From assembly GCA_964515405.1 (NCBI GenBank), contig CAZERD010000001.1, positions 7,629 through 71,628 of the forward strand: a stretch of 64,000 nt of DNA, given 5' to 3'. The DNA is from an uncultured Desulfurellales bacterium (GTDB taxonomy: Bacteria > Campylobacterota_A > Desulfurellia > Desulfurellales > CAZERD01). Each line of letters opens with the position of its first letter. Within the stretch, counting starts at the first letter, position 1. This document shows positions 49,851-62,819 of the stretch, piece after piece. A program made the translations under genes and the position numbers. Below the pieces are notes generated by a model. It was given only the letters and a program-made list of their open reading frames with translations. It was not told the origin of the DNA and ran no database searches.

Positions 49851-50781
49851 AGTCGCACATTGCCATGAGGTAATTTTTGTACTGTGAATCATCCAGGAGC
49901 TTTATGGTTTCTTTTGCCTTCTCTGAGTATTTCTTTGCCATGTTCAATGCTTCCTTTAGCCCCGATTCCCTTACCCCGTCGTGTATTGAATTCAGCAACC
50001 CCCCATCCCCTGTTTTGAAGTACTCTACTATATCCCTTCTGAGAGAGATGTGTTTTCTTATAGCGTAGAGGGTAGGAAGGGTTAATTTTCCCTCTTTGAG
50101 ATCATGTTCTGAATCTTTCCCCATTGTTTTTGTTTGTTCAAAGTCCAAGCAATCGTCCCTTATCTGGAATGCCATTCCCAAGTTTTTCCCGAATTCCCCA
50201 AAGATTCTTTGATAATTCTGGGTTGACAACATTGAGCCCACCACTGCACTTGATTCAATAAGCACCGCGGTTTTTTTATATATTATGTTCAGATATTTAT
50301 CAACAGATATATTCGGGTTGAAAGCGTGTTCTATTTCCTCTGTTTCCCCTTCAGATAACAGGTAAGCCGCTCTTGATATATTTTTTGCGATGGTTATATC
50401 AAATTCTAGTACCATATTAAAAGCCAAGGAGTAAAGATAGTCTCCACTGAGTATAGTTGGGTTGATTCCGTACACGGTGTGAGCTGTATCTTTATTCCTT
50501 CTCTTTGTGGCTTCGTCTATTACATCGTCGTGTAACAAACTTGCTGTGTGTATCAACTCCACTATGCATCCAAGCTTCAAAGCCTTTTCTATGTTTGTAC
50601 TTTCATTCAGAGAGAGAGCGGAGTATAGAACTATCAGCGGTCTAAGCCTTTTGCCTCCTTTTATTATCTGTTCATAGACTCCTTTTATTAGATTGCTGTT
50701 GGTTATAACTATTGTTGCAAGCATGTTGTCTATTAAAGGTATATCTATGGAAGCTCTTTGTTTAAGGAGTTCAATCATCAC
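49828..50781 (-). CDS. Polyprenyl diphosphate synthase (trans-IPPS, IspB-like)
   Basis: First and second Asp-rich motifs [10 protein letters not shown] and QIRDDCLDF. Confidence 0.85.
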
Positions 50782-53203
50782 TTGTTTCTACCCTTGAGAG
50801 TCCAACGACTTCGTCTCCATCTGAAAGCTCCATGAGTTTTATTCCATACGCCATTCTTCCCATAACTCTCAGCGTTTCTGATTTAATTCTTATGAGTTTA
50901 CCCTTTCTTGTGATGAGGAAGATATCATCCTCAGGGGTGACTATGGAGCTTGCCACCACATAGTTGCCCTCTTTCAATTTCATACCTATTACACCTCTTC
51001 CTCCTCTCTTTATAAGTCTGATGTCGGATGTGTTTATGAGTTTGCCTATTCCCATTGCTGTTACTATTAGCACTCTGGAGTTTTCTTCACCCCCAAATCT
51101 ATCTGCTGATACAACTATGTCGGTGTTGGTCAGTTTTATGCCCCTCACGCCTGAGGCAGTTCTGCCCATCAATCTTACGTCGGAAACCTTGAATCTTATA
51201 ACCATTCCGTGTTTTGTCGTCAGTATGATGTTATCTTTCTCCGCTGTTTCAAGCACCCTTATCAGCGAGTCGTCTTCTGAGAGTGTGATGGCTATCTTCC
51301 CAGCTGAGGTAATGTTTGAAAACTCTGTCTTGTTACATCTCTTTACTATGCCATTTGAAGTGACAAAAAATAGATTCCCTCTTGCTTTCATGGGTAGGAT
51401 TGTTTTAACAAATTCGCCGGGTTTGAGGTTTAGTAGGTTAACTATGGGTTTTCCTTTGGCTGTGGGTTGAAGTTTCGGTATTTCGTAGGTTTTTATTTTG
51501 TACACCCTGCCGGAATTTGTAAAGCATAGTAGGTCGTCTGTGCTTTCTGCTACAAAGACGTCCGATATGCTATCCCCGTCCGCAAAAGTGGATACGAGTC
51601 TCCCTTTTCCGCCCTTATTCTGAGTGGAGTAGTTGCCAGCCGTAATAGTTTTTATATACCCTCTTCTTGAGAAGACGACAACGAGATTCTCAATCTTTAT
51701 CATGTCCTCAATGTCTATTTTTTCTTCCTCTTCTTTTATCTCTGTTTTTCTTGAGTCTCCGTAGATTTTCTTGATTTCCGTGAGCTCTTTTTCTATTGTG
51801 AATTTCATTGCTTCTTTATTTGATAGTATTGTTTCGTATTGTTGTATGTCTTTGTTTAGTTGTTTGTATTCCTCAAGTAGCTTTTTTCTCTCAAGGCCTA
51901 CCAGACGGGAGAGTTTCATGTCCAGTATTGCTTGGGCCTGACGGTCAGATAACGTGAATCTTTCCTTGAGTTTGTTTCTGGCTTCCTGGGTGTTTTTGGA
52001 AGATTTTATTATGTTTACCACTTCGTCTATGTATTCCAGCGCCCTCATCAAGCCTTCAAGCACATGTGCCCTATCTCTGGCCTTGTTTAGTAAGAATGTG
52101 GTTTTCCTCTTTAGTATGTTTATCCTGTGCTTTACAAAGATTCCTATTAGTTCCTTTATATTGAGTACGCGGGGTACATTATCTTCAAGCGCTAGCATGT
52201 TTATGCCGAAAGTTATCTGCATGTTTGTATATTTATACAGGTTATTGAGCACAACATTTGCTTGTTCGTCTTTTTTTAGCTCGATAACTATTCTGACACC
52301 CTCCTTGCTTGATTCATCTCTAATGTCTGTTATGCCTTCTATTTTCTTGTTCTTCACGAGTTCGGATATGGATTGTATAAGCAGTGATTTGTTGACTTGG
52401 TAGGGTATTTCGTACACAATTATAGATTCTTTATTCTTATTTCTTTCTATTTTAGCTTTGGATCTTATTTTTACCCTACCCAGTCCGTGCTTGTAGGCTT
52501 CTACTATGCTGTTTCTGTCAAAACATATACCACCTGTTGGAAAGTCTGGTCCTGTTATTATGTTCATAAGTTCATCAATTGTGATTTCTCCTTCGCTTTT
52601 TAGGTAGGCGAGAGAAGCATCTATTATTTCGTTGAGGTTATGTGGTGGTATGTTTGTTGCGAATCCGACAGCTATTCCGCTTGAGCCGTTTATTAACAGA
52701 TTGGGTATATAAGAAGGGAGTACTGAGGGCTCTTTGAGGGATTCATCGTAGTTTGGGACAAAATCTACAGTGTTTTTGTCAAGATCCCTAAGCATCTCTT
52801 CGGCTACCTTTGATAATCTTGCCTCTGTATATCTCATAGCTGCTGGTGAGTCCCCGTCAAGGGAGCCGAAGTTACCCTGTCCATCCACGAGGGGATACCT
52901 CATTGAGAAATCTTGGGCCATTCTCACGAGGGCATCGTAAACGGCTGAATCTCCGTGTGGATGGTATTTACCCACCACATCCCCAACTACTCGGGCACAT
53001 TTTTTATAGGGTCTGTTATGTTCCAAGTTGAGTTCTTTCATAGCGTAGAGTATCCTTCTGTGAACGGGTTTGAGTCCATCTCTGGCATCAGGTATAGCCC
53101 TTCCAACGATTACACTCATGGAATAGTCAAGGTAAGACTGTTTCATGCTGGATTCTATATCGACTTCAACAATATTTTTGTTCGAAAACAACATTTCCTC
53201 CAT
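50771..53203 (-). CDS. gyrA: DNA gyrase subunit A
   Basis: 810 aa with the active-site Tyr context AAMRYTE and a C-terminal beta-pinwheel repeat region. Confidence 0.95.
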
Positions 53204-53211
53204 ACTCCACC

Positions 53212-56560
<3,349 letters not shown>

Positions 56561-56564
<4 letters not shown>

Positions 56565-57655
56565 CTCGTTATAGAGACTATGAGATATTTGTATTGAAAT
56601 AGATCGTTTTCTGCTTCGAACATCAGGGGAGAGCTTTTATCTCTGTAGAATATTTTGACCGTCTCTGATGAGATATGTGTTAGGAAATCTATAGCATACC
56701 TGCAGTCCAAGAGAAATTCTTCTCCATTTCCAGTGGATTCTGTTATATTTATTATGTCTGTAGCTTCTTCCCCTTCTGGACTTGTTGATATAAGTGTCAG
56801 TTGGTTTTTTTCTGTATCTATCCTGAAGGATGTTTCATTATTTTTGTATACCGTGAAGATCCTTTTTAAAGAGCTCAACAGTTCGTATTTGTTGACGATT
56901 ACCATGTTGTCTTCCTCTGATAACAGTATCTCCTTGTAATTTGGAAAGTTTCCTTCTATAGTCTTTATTCTAAATTCTGAGTATTCTGAACGGAGCACTA
57001 TGGAGTGTAATGTCCTGTAGAGTCCGGCGTTTGTCATATGTATTCTCGATACAAGCGAGGCTCCATCATATTCTATTATTTCTTTTAGGGTCTTGTCAGA
57101 TTTTTGGGTTGTCGACACTGTGGCAAGTCTATATCTGTCGGTGGCCGTAGATGTTATTCTTTCCCCATCTAATTCTATCAGCAAACCCGTGTACTCCCGT
57201 GATATGTCGTTCTTGCTGGCTGCGTATATTGAGGATTTGACCGTTTGTTTTAGGGTGTTGAAATCTATCTTTGATATGAATTCCACTTCCTCTTCTTCCT
57301 CCTGTGGGTATATCTCTGGGTCTATTGTTTTATAAGAGGTTTTGAAGTTGGAGTTTTTAAGTATGATTAGCTTATCTTGAACGGAGATTTCTGTTATTTC
57401 GTCCTCGAACTCTCTCAGTATAGAGCTTATTCGTTCTGGTGGCATTATAAATGCTGTTTCATCCATGCCGGTTTCCGTTTCAGCGTCTATTTTCTGTTTG
57501 GACGATACTAATCCGTTCGTTGAGTACACCGTTATGCTGGACGGAGAGAGTTTTATCAAACAGTTTGATAGTATATTGTTCTTGTCTTTGGAGGAAGTAT
57601 ACTCCGCTATTTGGAAAACATCCCTTAGTTTTTTGGTTTGGACTCTTATGGACAT
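56561..57655 (-). CDS. dnaN: DNA polymerase III beta sliding clamp
   Basis: About 364 aa with three-domain clamp length and sequence. I chose the second ATG (57655) because GGAGGTGA lies directly upstream; the first ATG (57667) has no SD. Confidence 0.9.
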
Positions 57656-57732
57656 TCTCACCTCCATGCTGGGTGTTTAATACTCACTTTATTATATACA
57701 AATTTTTTCACATGTTGAAGTGTTTCTTTCCC

Positions 57733-59565
57733 CTATTCTTTCAGACTGCTTTTTTTGTACTCGTATATGTCTGAGTATCCGGTGAGGGACTCCTTCGGGT
57801 TCATCATAGTGGTAGCTTCAATGACAAGCAATCCCAGTTCATTTACAGTGTTTACGCCAACATATCCAGCCTGTTTGCAAGCAAAGAATGCTTTTGAGAA
57901 GGTGTCTGGGGAAAGCCCGCTAGACTTTACGGCTTCTTTGGCCTTTTTGGGTGGTATCCTTATTTTTTTTTCGGATTCGTAGAGTAGCCCTGCCCTAGCC
58001 AAGGATGCAATCACCCTGTACATGGTAGGAGTTATGGGTGTTGCGAATCCCGCTGGTATGCTTGTTAGTACCTTGTGTATAATCCTACCGGCTTCTGTCT
58101 TCACTATGTTTCCATCTGGTAGTATCTCTATGAGATGTTCTGCTTCTAGTCTGTCCAATATACTTTCGAGTTTACTTTTTTCATTTTCATTTTTTGCATC
58201 TTTGAGTATATCCCAGATCGTGGTACCCTTTTCTCTTATTCTTTTGAATACTTCTCCATCTCTCTTTGTGATATATGGTTTTCTATCTATATTTTCCGAA
58301 AGAAATGCGTAAAAGTATCCGGATTTTGTTGGTTCATTGCTACCTATAATACCCTCCACTTGGGCCCTGTTGAACCACTCTGTGTTTGGGGCCGAAAATA
58401 CTTTTCTTGTCATGGTGATTGCCTTGATTGATGTTGAGGATATACTTCTCTTCTTTATTTTCTGGTCTTCAAGTACCTTTTTTCCAAAATACGTCAGTTT
58501 GAGCGTATCTGATGAATCCTCGTTTGTGTTTATCTCCACAAGATTAAAAGCTTCCAGGGAATATAGGATGTTTCTCAGTTCTGAGTCTTTGTTGATTTTT
58601 ATTTGGAGTTTTTTACTGTTCATGATTTCTTCAAGGTATACAACCTCTGAGTTTTTTTCTGTTTTCCTAAGGTTGTCTATGTGGAATAGCACTTCAATTT
58701 CTTTTTCTCCTATGGAGAACGACCACACGTCTGTTCTGTTCTTCCTTTTCCACAATCTGTGTACCTCCAGTGCCCACTCTCCTGCGGGTAGGAGTTCTCT
58801 ATGATTTCCAATGTAACCAAGTAGTTGAAGCCATAGAATTGTTGAATCAGGCACGTCATTGCCGTCGGCCACATCTGTCAGGTTTGCAAGTATGGTAGGT
58901 GTTAAAACGTATCCTTCTTTTACGAAACCTCCCAGCTCTAGTGTGTTCTTGACGGCTTGTCCAAGAGCTGTGAACGAATACACATTTGAGTCTGGGATGC
59001 TGTAGGCTATTAGCCTCATGGATTCAAGTAGATGCTCAAAATAACAGTTGTTTTTGAGTTTGGAACTGAGTGCTGGACCTGTTGGGAGTGTTCGGATGTG
59101 TTCTGCGAGTTCGTGAGACACTACAAGGAGAGGGGATATGGAGTTATAGAGACTAAACACTTCCCTGCCGGCTTCGTTGGTTTCAGGGTATGTCTTTTGG
59201 TTGTGTTCGTCCACAAACCCGCGCTCCTTTAGGGGTTCTATGGATGTATCTGTTATTCGCCCCCCTTTTATAGAGGAGTCGAGCATTGCTATCACTTCAG
59301 AGCCGAGCCATCGCCAGTCTGGATTCCACTGTTCTGGCGATAAGAGACGTCCTGAGTCTATAAGATTGCTCAGCGTGTTTGCTAGCTCAGCGCCTGAAAA
59401 GGTTAGAATGACCCTGAGGTTTGAATCCAGAGACACCAGCCCTGCTCTTTCTAGTGTTCTCACTGTTTCTGTGTTGTTTTGCTCCAGTACAGTCAAGGGT
59501 TCTCCCTCGGTTTTTTCTTTTAAGAGTGCTAGAAGCATTTTAGCTTGGGCGCTTTTTATTATCAT
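57733..59565 (-). CDS. Uncharacterised 610-aa soluble protein with repeated winged-helix-like motifs
   Basis: Long ORF with a strong SD (GGAGGTAAGG, 3 nt from the ATG) and its own promoter. It has no P-loop and no TM segment. wHTH-like motifs recur: LERAGLVSL, LKERGFVDE, LARAGLLYE, KQAGYVGV, LEAEHLIEIL and LEAFNLVEI. Confidence 0.6.
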   Translation of the reverse strand: MIIKSAQAKMLLALLKEKTEGEPLTVLEQNNTETVRTLERAGLVSLDSNLRVILTFSGAELANTLSNLIDSGRLLSPEQWNPDWRWLGSEVIAMLDSSIKGGRITDTSIEPLKERGFVDEHNQKTYPETNEAGREVFSLYNSISPLLVVSHELAEHIRTLPTGPALSSKLKNNCYFEHLLESMRLIAYSIPDSNVYSFTALGQAVKNTLELGGFVKEGYVLTPTILANLTDVADGNDVPDSTILWLQLLGYIGNHRELLPAGEWALEVHRLWKRKNRTDVWSFSIGEKEIEVLFHIDNLRKTEKNSEVVYLEEIMNSKKLQIKINKDSELRNILYSLEAFNLVEINTNEDSSDTLKLTYFGKKVLEDQKIKKRSISSTSIKAITMTRKVFSAPNTEWFNRAQVEGIIGSNEPTKSGYFYAFLSENIDRKPYITKRDGEVFKRIREKGTTIWDILKDAKNENEKSKLESILDRLEAEHLIEILPDGNIVKTEAGRIIHKVLTSIPAGFATPITPTMYRVIASLARAGLLYESEKKIRIPPKKAKEAVKSSGLSPDTFSKAFFACKQAGYVGVNTVNELGLLVIEATTMMNPKESLTGYSDIYEYKKSSLKE

Positions 59566-59597
59566 TTACCTTACCTCCGCAATTTGTTTCTCATCTA

Positions 59598-59625
59598 TAT
59601 ATAGGTCTATGGTTGAAAAGGTCAA
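59598..59625 (-). promoter_or_regulatory. Sigma-70-type promoter for the 610-aa gene
   Basis: The minus strand reads TTGACC, 16 nt, TATATA, about 30 nt upstream of the ATG. Confidence 0.55.
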
Positions 59626-59768: not shown

Positions 59769-60563
59769 GTGGATCATGCGTTTCTTCTTATCATTGTCTT
59801 TTTTGTTGTATCAACATTTTTCTCAATGGTGGGGATAGGAGGAGGCATTTTATATGTGCCGATTCTTCTGTTTGCTGGTTTCTCTATGAAACAAGCTCCG
59901 GCCATCAGTTTAATCCTTATAGTGGCAACTTCAGTGTCTGCTCTGTTGACATACTGGCATAATCATAAGGTGGACTGGAAATTAGCTCTGGTGATAGATG
60001 TACCAACAGATATAATGGCTTTCGTCGGAGGCTATTTTAGCTGGGCTTTCTCTGAGGTAGTGCTTAAAGCCATGCTGGCAGGTGTGCTTGTTGTAGCTGG
60101 GATTATGATGATGGGAGGTAATACACACAGGGCTGCTTTGGTGGATGCTCCAAAGAGGCGCTGGTGTTGGCACCGTACTTTCAACGGTGTGGAGTACTTT
60201 GTTAATATGCCGTTGGTGTTTGCTGTTGCTGTTTTTATCGGTACTATCTCTGGTATGATAGGTGTAACGGGTGGTGTTGTTAAACTTCCCGTTATGGTGC
60301 TTTTGTGTGGTGTTCCCATGGATGTGGCTGTTGCTACTTCGACGGCTATGGTGGCTGTGACGGCTGCTTTTGGACTTGCAGGACATGCTGTACATGGGGC
60401 TATTCAGTGGAGGATGGGGTTATTTTTGGCACTTGCTGCTATAGCTGGCGGAATCTTGGGGAGCAATATATCCATAACCATGGATAAGCGTAGACTCAAA
60501 CGATTGTTTGGAGTTGTGCTTGTTCTTGTTGCTTTGAGGTTGGTCGCTCAGTTGCTTTTATGA
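59769..60563 (+). CDS. TauE/SafE (DUF81) family anion exporter-like membrane protein
   Basis: GTG start. 264 aa, about eight TM segments, and the family's Gly-rich motifs (MVGIGGGILYVP; GMIGVTGGVVKLP). Confidence 0.8.
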   Translation: MDHAFLLIIVFFVVSTFFSMVGIGGGILYVPILLFAGFSMKQAPAISLILIVATSVSALLTYWHNHKVDWKLALVIDVPTDIMAFVGGYFSWAFSEVVLKAMLAGVLVVAGIMMMGGNTHRAALVDAPKRRWCWHRTFNGVEYFVNMPLVFAVAVFIGTISGMIGVTGGVVKLPVMVLLCGVPMDVAVATSTAMVAVTAAFGLAGHAVHGAIQWRMGLFLALAAIAGGILGSNISITMDKRRLKRLFGVVLVLVALRLVAQLLL

Positions 60564-60660
60564 ATGGGTTGTGATTATTTTTTTGATATATTTCTGAAGC
60601 TTTGGTAATACCCAGGAGCTCAGGGGGGAGATATTTGGATTAGTAGAGCATATCTAATGA

Positions 60661-60968
60661 TTCTATCTCTTTGGTCTTCTTACGTTTGACCTGGAGGAGG
60701 TGTGAGTTTGGCTGCTCGTGTTGTGATGATGTGCGATGGTAGGATACTGTGAGTGGGCTCTCTTGAGGATATATTTGCTGTCCTGATTGATGGTTTTGTT
60801 GCTGACTTTGTTGAAGCCAGCACATTTGGATGTGTGGTTTCAGATTATGAGGGTAATTTGACAGTTATTGATATTAATGAGAGGTTGAAACTGTATTTCT
60901 CTGACAGAGAAATTGTTGTAGCCGTTAGGCCTGAGAGGATTATGTTTTCCAGGAACCCCTGGGTTTAA
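60661..60968 (+). pseudogene. Degraded 3' fragment of a ModC/CysA/PotA-type ABC ATPase gene
   Basis: Three pieces read as one ABC ATPase C-terminus. TFDLEEV (H-loop region) is followed by a frameshift. LAARVVMMCDGRIL is followed by an in-frame TGA at 60750. The last piece is VGSLEDIF...FVADFVEA...VAVRPERIMF (ORF 60753..60968). The Walker A/B half is absent. Confidence 0.6.
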
Positions 60969-61129
60969 GAGGAGGGTCGGTGCTTGATGTGAATGTTTGC
61001 CATTCAGGGCTTTGCTTACAATTAATGCCTGTGAGTTTCTTGAGTTGACCCGTGGTTCTGAGTTCTGAGGTGTTTGTTCAAATGGAGAGCAGGCATGCCA
61101 GAATAAGAGGTTGATGGATAAGTGTGGTG

Positions 61130-61158
61130 TTGACTTTATTCTGTAGATAGTGTATAAA
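61130..61158 (+). promoter_or_regulatory. Sigma-70-type promoter for the trp leader and operon
   Basis: TTGACT (61130-61135), 17 nt, TATAAA (61153-61158). Confidence 0.55.
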
Positions 61159-61186
61159 TAAATGTATGAATGGAAGGAAAGGATTA

Positions 61187-61222
61187 ATGCTCCATAGAAG
61201 CTGGTGGTGGGATAGCCGTTAA
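61187..61222 (+). CDS. trp operon leader peptide MLHRSWWWDSR
   Basis: 11-codon ORF with three consecutive TGG codons (61202-61210). GGAAGGAAAGGA lies upstream. It sits between the promoter and two terminators, directly upstream of trpE. Confidence 0.65.
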   Translation: MLHRSWWWDSR

Positions 61223-61233
61223 AGGGCTATCCC
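61209..61233 (+). promoter_or_regulatory. Leader hairpin (segments 1:2) overlapping the last Trp codon and the leader stop codon
   Basis: GGGATAGCC (61209-61217) pairs perfectly with GGCTATCCC (61225-61233). Segment 2 can alternatively pair with GGGATAG at 61276-61282. Confidence 0.55.
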
Positions 61234-61249
61234 TTGGAAGGTAAAGAGA

Positions 61250-61318
61250 GCCGCTTGAGGGCTGGCTCCTTTTAGGGGATAGACCTTAAAGGGGGTAAGC
61301 CATCGGGCGGCTTTTTTT
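61250..61318 (+). terminator. Attenuator terminator T1 (long imperfect hairpin + T7)
   Basis: 61250-61277 pairs with 61284-61311. By hand count that is 20 Watson-Crick pairs, 6 GU pairs and 2 mismatches, with a 6-nt loop, followed by TTTTTTT (61312-61318). Confidence 0.55.
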
Positions 61319-61322
61319 ATTG

Positions 61323-61366
61323 GCCGCTTGGTCCGATGGCCAACCATTGGATCGGGCGGCTTTTTT
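61323..61366 (+). terminator. Attenuator terminator T2 (17-bp hairpin + T6)
   Basis: 61323-61339 pairs with 61344-61360 (13 Watson-Crick and 4 GU pairs, CCAA tetraloop), followed by TTTTTT. It ends 14 nt before the trpE ATG. Confidence 0.65.
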
Positions 61367-61379
61367 GTTGGGGGGTGAT

Positions 61380-62819
61380 ATGGCGTTTACTAGGGATGAA
61401 TTTATCAAAGAGGCGGAGTGTGGATCGGAGAGGGTGGTTTTGTACAGAGAGGTTGGGGGAGATATGGATACCCCTGTGTCTCTCCTTCTTAAAGTTGCGG
61501 GAGATAGGAGGTGTTTTCTGCTTGAGAGTGCTAACATCAAGAAGGTTTATAGCAGGTTTTCCTTTCTGGGGTTTGATGTTGAATCTGAGTATGTGATTAG
61601 GGACGATGGGCTTTATTTGGACGGTAGACATGTGGGGGATCTTGGGGAGATAGAAAGGTTTCTCTCAGAGAATAGAACGGTCAGCGTATCGGAATGGAAT
61701 TTTGCTGGGGGATTGGTTGGCTATTTTGCTTTTGAGTTTGTAGATAAAACGCCCGTTCTTAAGAAACCCCTGAGCAAGAAACACGATACACTTGCTAAAC
61801 TGTTCCTGGTGGAGAGATTCTTGGTCTATGATAACTATACTAACAGATTGTATCTTGGGGTATCAAAGAAAGTGGATCATTTCTCTTGTGATTTTGGTTT
61901 TTCTGAGGCAAAAAGTGAGCTTGATCTCCTTGAGAGTGAGCTTTTTAAGAGGCGTGGATTCTTAGAGCCTGTCGCAGTTGGGCCGCGGGTAGTAGACATG
62001 GGTTTTTCCAAGCGTGAGTTTGAGAAGACCGTGTCGTATGTGAGGGAGTTGATAGGATGTGGTGAAGCTATTCAGGTGGTTGTAAGCAATTTTTACGATA
62101 TCCTTGGTATAGATCCCTTTGAGTTTTATAGGGCTTTGAGAAGGTTGAACCCTTCTCCTTATATGTACTTTTTTAAGGATGGGGATGAGTTTGTTGTTGG
62201 TTCGAGCCCGGAAATACATGTTAGGAAGAGGGGAGATAGGATTACCATAAAACCGATAGCTGGAACAAGGCCTCGTGGGGCTACAGAGGAAGAGCTGACG
62301 AGATTCAGAGAAGAGTTGATTTCTGATGAGAAGGAAAGGGCGGAACATTTAATGCTTGTGGATCTTGCCAGGAATGATCTATCCAGTGTTTGCAGAATTG
62401 GAAGCCTTGAGGTGTCAAGCTTCATGGATATAGAGGAGTATTCACATGTGATTCACCTTGTTTCTGAGGTGAATGCTCTGTTGGGTGATGGGTTTTCCGA
62501 GATTGATTTGCTGAAGAACACATTTCCTGCTGGTACACTCAGCGGTGCCCCAAAGAGCAGAGCCGTTGAGATTATAGACGAGGTGGAAAGAGAGGTTCGC
62601 TCCTGCTACGGTGGATGTATTGGATATATTGGATTCAATGGAGACATGGATATGGCTATAACGATAAGGACAGCTGTGTTTAGGCAAGGTGTTGCTAGGT
62701 TCCAAGCTGGTGCGGGTATCATCTATGACAGTGACCCTGAGAGGGAGTACTACGAAACGATAAATAAGCTCGCTGCTCTAGCGAGGGCAGGAGGTGTTGA
62801 TGATAGTATTGATAGATAA
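61380..62819 (+). CDS. trpE: Anthranilate synthase component I
   Basis: I chose the ATG at 61380 because GGGGGGTGA lies upstream; the ORF-track start at 61320 lies inside the terminators. Motifs LARNDL, GTLSGAPK and the N-terminal LLES segment. Confidence 0.9.
   Translation: MAFTRDEFIKEAECGSERVVLYREVGGDMDTPVSLLLKVAGDRRCFLLESANIKKVYSRFSFLGFDVESEYVIRDDGLYLDGRHVGDLGEIERFLSENRTVSVSEWNFAGGLVGYFAFEFVDKTPVLKKPLSKKHDTLAKLFLVERFLVYDNYTNRLYLGVSKKVDHFSCDFGFSEAKSELDLLESELFKRRGFLEPVAVGPRVVDMGFSKREFEKTVSYVRELIGCGEAIQVVVSNFYDILGIDPFEFYRALRRLNPSPYMYFFKDGDEFVVGSSPEIHVRKRGDRITIKPIAGTRPRGATEEELTRFREELISDEKERAEHLMLVDLARNDLSSVCRIGSLEVSSFMDIEEYSHVIHLVSEVNALLGDGFSEIDLLKNTFPAGTLSGAPKSRAVEIIDEVEREVRSCYGGCIGYIGFNGDMDMAITIRTAVFRQGVARFQAGAGIIYDSDPEREYYETINKLAALARAGGVDDSIDR

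Follow-up and report, generated by a model that had tools for sequence, protein, structure and literature searches.

The 64-kb window analyzed here (a stretch of 64,000 nucleotides [nt] from contig CAZERD010000001.1, recovered from an uncultured bacterium) carries an intact dnaN-recF-gyrB-gyrA block in which dnaA's usual place, directly upstream of dnaN, is taken by a gene of 610 amino acids (aa). By its profile match, the encoded protein is a full-length member of DUF505, an uncharacterized Pfam family, and structure prediction presents it as a compact chain of about nine degenerate winged-helix modules of the MarR/PadR type. We attribute the presence of a DUF505 gene in dnaA's slot to a lineage-specific rearrangement of the chromosome and not to a tie between the family and replication. 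The full explanation that we favor, and consider reasonably probable, joins a DUF505 winged-helix array, a rearrangement in this lineage that left the gene beside dnaN, and a nonenzymatic scaffold function for the protein.

The assignment to DUF505 (PF04458) is full length, with 546.5 bits and an E value of 1e-163 against a cutoff of 28.7. The match falls in two stretches, the best of which spans profile positions 354 to 621 of 622, and the same profile is matched by all 33 aligned family members. A family of the DUF type had been suspected in the initial annotation, made from the sequence without database searches, and DUF505 bears this out. At least 231 homologues were found, with identities of up to 56%. 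Those carrying the DUF505 annotation are 37 to 56% identical over 97 to 100% of the window protein's length and include proteins of Thermotomaculum hydrothermale, Hippea alviniae, Caldisericum exile, Thermodesulfatator, and Oceanithermus; further homologues come from Thermopetrobacter, Sulfurivirga, Nitratiruptor/Nautiliaceae, Hydrogenimonas, Thermosulfuriphilus, Hydrothermota, Acetothermia, and many hydrothermal metagenome-assembled genomes (MAGs). Every named host of DUF505 is a hydrothermal or thermophilic bacterium. The family is spread patchily over at least eight bacterial lineages and many phyla, and it is small, an exhaustive profile search of 1.84 billion representatives yielding 142 clusters at 50% identity, with many fragments.

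Across the family, 66 columns are invariant, including W80, W264, W281, W397, R115, R158, K381, R517, and R536, and the window protein keeps all of them. At 610 aa it is a short form, most members having 640 to 675 aa, and is without the family's basic insert, about 40 aa long, in the center of the chain; Hippea jasoniae and Acetothermia have short forms too (570 to 610 aa). Among distant family members, the C-terminal units are the best retained. Sequence and profile searches of the window protein against NCBIfam and the PDB returned nothing significant.

The gene is real and, to judge from the signals that precede it, probably expressed; these signals, described in the initial annotation, are present as given there:

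57733-59565, minus strand: DUF505-family gene, 610 aa, ATG start (open reading frame [ORF] list, Pfam PF04458, AlphaFold2 model)
59592-59625, minus strand: promoter-like site upstream of the DUF505 gene, TTGACC (59625-59620), 16 nt, TATATA (consensus match only)
59569-59578, minus strand: Shine-Dalgarno sequence GGAGGTAAGG, 3 nt ahead of the DUF505 ATG (read directly)

The promoter-like site is absent from the scanner's list because the scanner accepts only -10 hexamers that have T as their sixth base. The ORF coordinates confirm that the gene ends 65 nt (first dnaN ATG) or 77 nt (second ATG, at 57655) upstream of the intact dnaN-recF-gyrB-gyrA block. The protein is soluble: with a maximum Kyte-Doolittle 19-mer score of 1.08, it has no transmembrane segment. 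A pattern search of the 610-aa translation found neither a Walker A nor a Walker B pattern, and no catalytic signature or beta-clamp-binding motif was found in it either. The earlier statements that the protein has no P-loop, no transmembrane segment, and no DnaA domain IV thus stand.

The AlphaFold2 model, built with the 33-sequence alignment, shows a single compact body (predicted local distance difference test [pLDDT] score of 90.4; predicted template-modeling score of 0.89), in which a helix-helix-hairpin-helix pattern recurs about nine times. In each module a recognition-type helix is followed by a beta-hairpin wing and then by a helix opening with a T/S-x-x-G cap. The six motifs in which the initial annotation had seen a likeness to winged helices (LERAGLVSL, LKERGFVDE, LARAGLLYE, KQAGYVGV, LEAEHLIEIL, and LEAFNLVEI) all exist, each lying at a helix-to-strand junction of the model, and three further junctions of this kind are found at residues 182 to 190, 246 to 254, and 402 to 409. 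Local Foldseek matches to MarR, PadR, RosR, MepR, and LmrR cover about 85 residues with probabilities of 0.99 to 1.0 and root mean square deviations mostly of 2 to 3 Å (up to 4 Å). The N-terminal half, modeled separately (pLDDT of 90.2), gives the same kind of matches, including AF1382 at 24% identity, and both halves are thus predicted to contain winged helices. Several units also resemble one another in hhalign comparisons (probabilities of 93% for U2-U4, with an E value of 4e-7, 85% for U5-U7, 75% for U3-U5, and 71% for U6-U9). Sub-threshold Pfam matches to winged helix-turn-helix (wHTH) families recur among the 33 members, wHTH-PRTase_assc in 14 and PadR in 13 (best E value, 8e-4). The description of a winged-helix repeat protein therefore holds up, with local matches at a probability of about 1.0 in the whole chain as well as in the N-terminal half.

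As a whole, the chain matches no structure in the PDB or BFVD by Foldseek, all E values being above 1e-3 and all template-modeling (TM) scores at most 0.15. The top-ranked whole-chain hits are TFIIH p52/Tfb2, Pol III RPC62, MukE/MukF, and MksE, which are likewise winged-helix arrays and in which the arrays serve mostly protein-protein contacts inside nucleic-acid machines. However, TM scores of 0.08 to 0.15 with E values above 1e-3 against TFIIH p52, RPC62, and MukE/F indicate no common overall arrangement and give no evidence of homology. The MksE profile matches the window protein weakly (E value of 0.083; 13.7 bits, against a cutoff of 27; Foldseek TM score of at most 0.14). No SMC, kleisin, Mks, or Muk gene occurs among the Pfam-annotated neighbor clusters, and the sole SMC-like neighbor in the window is recF.

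The composition of the family is acidic, with isoelectric points of 4.8 to 6.4. The wings are uncharged or acidic, and of the nine units seven carry a neutral or acidic charge across the family; a net basic charge is confined to units 6 and 8, whose conserved patches are K381/R387 and R517/R536, respectively:

58381-58425, minus strand: basic patch of unit 6, residues 381 to 395 (K381 invariant; T384, T386, and R387 at least 90% conserved)
57925-57969, minus strand: wing of unit 8, residues 533 to 547, the family's most basic conserved stretch (R536 invariant; mean charge of +4.6 per 15 columns)

With only two of nine units net basic in an acidic family, the general nucleic-acid binding that had been proposed for the protein is doubtful. 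From the predicted fold and the composition, DUF505 is most likely a nonenzymatic scaffold or adaptor whose winged-helix modules would serve mainly for protein contacts, as in TFIIH p52, RPC62, and MukE. Nucleic-acid binding, if there is any, would be local and confined to the one face formed by units 6 and 8.

How a gene of this family may have come to stand beside dnaN is best seen from the gene order of relatives. The window GyrB is 67 to 70% identical to that of the Hippea clade, including named Hippea species, after which identity drops to 55%; on this basis the source organism would be a Hippea-clade bacterium. The block in the window reads as follows:

56561-57667, minus strand: dnaN, beta clamp (Pfam DNA_pol3_beta, DNA_pol3_beta_2, and DNA_pol3_beta_3)
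55563-56564, minus strand: recF (Pfam match)
53212-55566, minus strand: gyrB (identity to GyrB of relative L085)
50771-53203, minus strand: gyrA (identity to GyrA of relative L085)
50771-56564, minus strand: recF-gyrB-gyrA as a unit, in an order common with Hippea-clade relatives and on the lagging strand in the window
57668-57732, minus strand: spacer between DUF505 and dnaN, with promoter-like TCAACA, 16 nt, TATAAT (57718-57691) and no terminator

The window gyrB and gyrA are 65 to 67% identical to the GyrB and GyrA calls of L085. In all five Hippea-clade relatives (L085, L087, L088, L089, and Hippea sp. KM1, L090) an AT-rich gap of about 200 nt separates dnaA from dnaN, recF, and gyrB, and the order continues to gyrA, a polyprenyl synthase gene, and hemA-hemC-hemD where the contig reaches that far. 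The window keeps this order from dnaN through hemD, with DUF505 standing in dnaA's place, and the earlier remark that this is dnaA's usual slot is confirmed by all five. The spacer of 65 to 77 nt in the window compares with gaps at L085:9793-10000, L087:5168-5376, L088:5708-5906, L089:5715-5923, and L090:5699-5911, which have GC contents of 0.18 to 0.34 and in which TTATTAACA or (C)TGTCAAAA/TGACA boxes recur as candidate oriC elements. ORFs of 43 to 75 aa called within these gaps are probably spurious. On the window side of the junction, the second in-frame dnaN ATG (57655) is preceded by GGAGGTG and gives the 364-aa database form P0122, and is therefore probably the true start.

Neither dnaA nor an origin was detected in the window: a clade-specific DnaA hidden Markov model (HMM) found no match, and searches for DnaA boxes, clade-specific boxes, and AT-rich regions found no origin-like cluster. 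Since GC skew over the whole sequence is confounded by the coding strand, skew was taken at third codon positions, where it is positive on the plus strand in every stretch of the window regardless of gene strand. This points to the plus strand as the leading strand throughout and to no origin inside. The coding-strand skew of gyrB, gyrA, and hemA is +0.11 to +0.33 in the relatives versus -0.19 to -0.33 in the window, a reversal of sign by which the dnaN block appears inverted relative to replication; from the same values we infer that the inversion is old enough for the skew to have re-equilibrated. By third-position skew, 31 of the 56 window genes lie head-on to replication, dnaN, recF, gyrB, gyrA, and the hem genes among them.

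On the far side of the DUF505 gene stand genes (TauE, trpE, and trpG) that flank dnaA in none of the relatives examined:

59769-60563, plus strand: TauE/SafE-family membrane protein, divergent neighbor of the DUF505 gene (Pfam)

As it is not dnaA's flank in the relatives, the TauE/SafE gene would mark the other side of the rearrangement junction. We propose that the chromosome was rearranged long ago and that one of the breaks fell immediately ahead of the dnaN promoter; this would have turned the dnaN block against the direction of replication and left dnaN beside a stand-alone DUF505 gene.

For the adjacency elsewhere, we compared 80 genome loci, four looked-up loci (L081 to L084), and 80 metagenome loci (L092 to L171), searched for dnaN, recF, and dnaA by tblastn and clade HMMs; the genome and metagenome sets are partly of common origin, and their counts are thus not independent. 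In none of these 164 loci is dnaN, recF, or dnaA adjacent to DUF505, and among the DUF505 loci examined the dnaN adjacency is unique to the window; fragments of dnaN occur about 10 kb from DUF505 only in L060 and L064, both from Campylobacterota. DUF505 also occurs in the genus Hippea. In H. alviniae it is flanked by a radical-SAM gene and a polysaccharide deacetylase gene, away from dnaN and on another contig than gyrB, and its flanks have nothing in common with those of the window, while in Hippea sp. KM1 the dnaA-dnaN pair is intact. The DUF505 genes of Thermotomaculum hydrothermale and a related MAG are each divergent to an HSP20 small heat-shock gene (L081:7281-7727 and L082:7293-7739).

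The recurrent neighbor is UPF0128 (PF03673/TIGR00703), found near DUF505 in 17 of the 80 genome loci and present in 29 of the 80 metagenome loci, from at least five phyla, and typically directly upstream on the same strand (immediately so in L004, L006, L011, L016, L019, L024 to L030, L035, L042, L045, and L054). This arrangement suggests a two-gene module, and UPF0128 would be a likely partner of DUF505 in the genomes where it is present. A wider cassette is seen, for example, in L030 (a Thermaceae MAG, about 3.6 to 8 kb) and in L008, L009, and L017 (Thermodesulfobacteriota), its members being a 165-aa protein with two winged-helix-like motifs, a 241-aa protein, a rhomboid-like gene, and an SDH-type ClpP-like protease (PF01972). 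The N terminus of the 241-aa protein compares with the RAMP protein Csm5 at a nonsignificant E value of about 0.9. In some clades the neighbors of DUF505 are stress genes (HSP20, peroxiredoxin, and YfdX).

Such neighborhoods raise the alternative that DUF505 travels as cargo in a mobile cassette spread by horizontal transfer, such as a defense or stress module, and was inserted beside dnaN. This idea would fit with the recurrence of the cassette, in which UPF0128 and DUF505 are joined by two unknown proteins, a rhomboid-like protein, and an SDH-type protease, with the stress-gene neighbors, and with the patchy occurrence in at least eight lineages of a common hydrothermal habitat. However, UPF0128 and the other cassette partners are absent from the window, no integrase, transposase, tRNA, or flanking repeat was found at the junction, and no PADLOC or PHROGs model matches the window protein at an E value of 1 or below. 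Moreover, the H. alviniae DUF505 is 54% identical to the window protein, a value between those of dnaN (38 to 40%) and gyrB (67 to 70%) against the Hippea clade and compatible with vertical descent. We regard insertion as mobile cargo as improbable.

Several points do weigh against our own reading. In three other lineages, DUF505 has gyrase genes at a distance of no more than 10 kb: gyrA is directly downstream of it in a Sulfurovum MAG (L062:12038-14467) and divergent to it in a Hyphomicrobiales MAG (L041:7013-9595), gyrA also occurring in metagenome locus L134, and gyrB lies about 7 kb upstream in six Campylobacterota loci (L052, L053, L060, L064, L070, and L077; first 2.6 kb). This proximity might point to a weak link to DNA topology; it is given here without a P value, as single-linkage grouping of genomic contexts chained 48 loci together. 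Co-transcription of DUF505 and dnaN is possible in the source organism, since they are only 65 to 77 nt apart with no terminator between them. That dnaA and oriC lie elsewhere in the source genome is assumed, the scaffold role is drawn from fold and composition, and a chimeric join in the metagenome-assembled contig, unlikely as it is, would likewise count on this side. A literature search for DUF505 gave prefix matches such as DUF5059 and, restricted to the whole word, no paper; searches on PF04458, UPF0128 (PF03673), and COG1542 returned no relevant paper.

Part of this evidence would fit a second alternative, in which DUF505 is a replication or chromosome factor acting with the beta clamp and the gyrase operon, perhaps with an origin-proximal role where dnaA has moved. 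The gene is directly upstream of dnaN without an intervening terminator, winged-helix folds occur in ORC/Cdc6, MukE/F, and other DNA-handling complexes, and gyrase genes recur nearby in the loci just listed. A chromosome or replisome association had also been put forward in the initial annotation. That proposal rested on adjacency, and the missing linkage to dnaN, recF, and dnaA in all 164 other loci speaks against it by that annotation's own account. The closest homologues (Thermotomaculum and Hippea alviniae) stand in unrelated contexts, the Hippea relatives retain dnaA-dnaN, dnaN has a promoter-like site of its own in the spacer, and the protein is of an acidic family and lacks an ATPase domain, DnaA domain IV, and a clamp-binding motif. 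As far as the compared gene orders go, comparative genomics yields nothing that ties the family to the replisome, and we consider a replication role quite improbable.

A role as a substitute for DnaA was examined separately and is ruled out by the absent AAA+ domain, Walker motifs, and domain IV. With DnaA, the DUF505 gene of the window has only the genomic slot upstream of dnaN-recF-gyrB in common; the proteins have no sequence or profile similarity. Neither Bac_DnaA (PF00308) nor Bac_DnaA_C (PF08299) matches the DUF505 protein, and the DHTT-type signature of DnaA domain IV was not found in any reading frame.

The fold itself invites a third alternative, to which we give the same low credence as to a replication role: a transcription regulator that would recognize specific sequences through its many wHTH domains of the MarR/PadR type. 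Single units superpose on the DNA-binding domains of MarR, PadR, RosR, and MepR with probabilities of about 1.0, and weak PadR and TrmB profile matches occur among family members. In fold, the units are alike to the MarR, PadR, and RosR regulators (PDB 5h3r, 6pcp, 4ejo, and 6ez1) and to AF1382 (2qvo), with identities of up to 24%, and both groups show the junction of helix, glycine, and hydrophobic strand and the T-x-x-G cap after the wing. However, those regulators are small, dimeric proteins in which a single basic domain reads the DNA, whereas DUF505 has about nine units fused in a rigid 610-aa chain, seven of them neutral or acidic, and the basic residues on which MarR relies are missing from its wings. 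No MarR/PadR-type regulator family exceeds its Pfam threshold, MarR is outside the 25 families most matched by the 33 members, and no conserved target operon is evident.

Less credible still is a combined version, in which DUF505 would be a thermophile-specific, DNA-associated scaffold for chromosome topology or replication and its placement at dnaN, together with the proximity to gyrase genes, would reflect a real coupling. Least credible of all is an assembly artifact: the source is a 94.6-kb MAG contig without close relatives in the databases, and the only other contig with an identical gyrB is 2.8 kb long and stops short of the junction, but GC content and third-position GC skew run smoothly across the DUF505/dnaN junction, the spacer holds a plausible dnaN promoter and Shine-Dalgarno sequence, and there is no repeat at the join.

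Apart from these questions, the window stretch from 60564 to 61380, before trpE, is rich in hairpins, and its plus-strand ORFs are all of 71 aa or less. Of particular note is the part from 61241 to 61365 (plus strand); the region includes GGGATAGCC...GGCTATCCC and a GC-rich stem followed by a T run. It may be a trp leader or attenuator; its only Rfam match, at 34 bits, falls below the gathering score of 67. An Rfam scan of the 64-kb window found no family at its gathering score, tRNAs included.

On our reading, the finding comes down to a known, if uncharacterized, family and a lineage-specific change in gene order, and not to a new replication system. Of DUF505 itself there is now a structural description: about nine predicted winged-helix modules form a compact array, in which one basic face is conserved. 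The recurrent partner of the family, UPF0128, is a second family of unknown function, and the named hosts are only hydrothermal or thermophilic bacteria. For the organism, a lineage of the Hippea clade would have detached dnaA and oriC from dnaN and set dnaN-gyrBA head-on to replication, which matters for oriC prediction in MAGs where it is anchored on dnaA-dnaN synteny.

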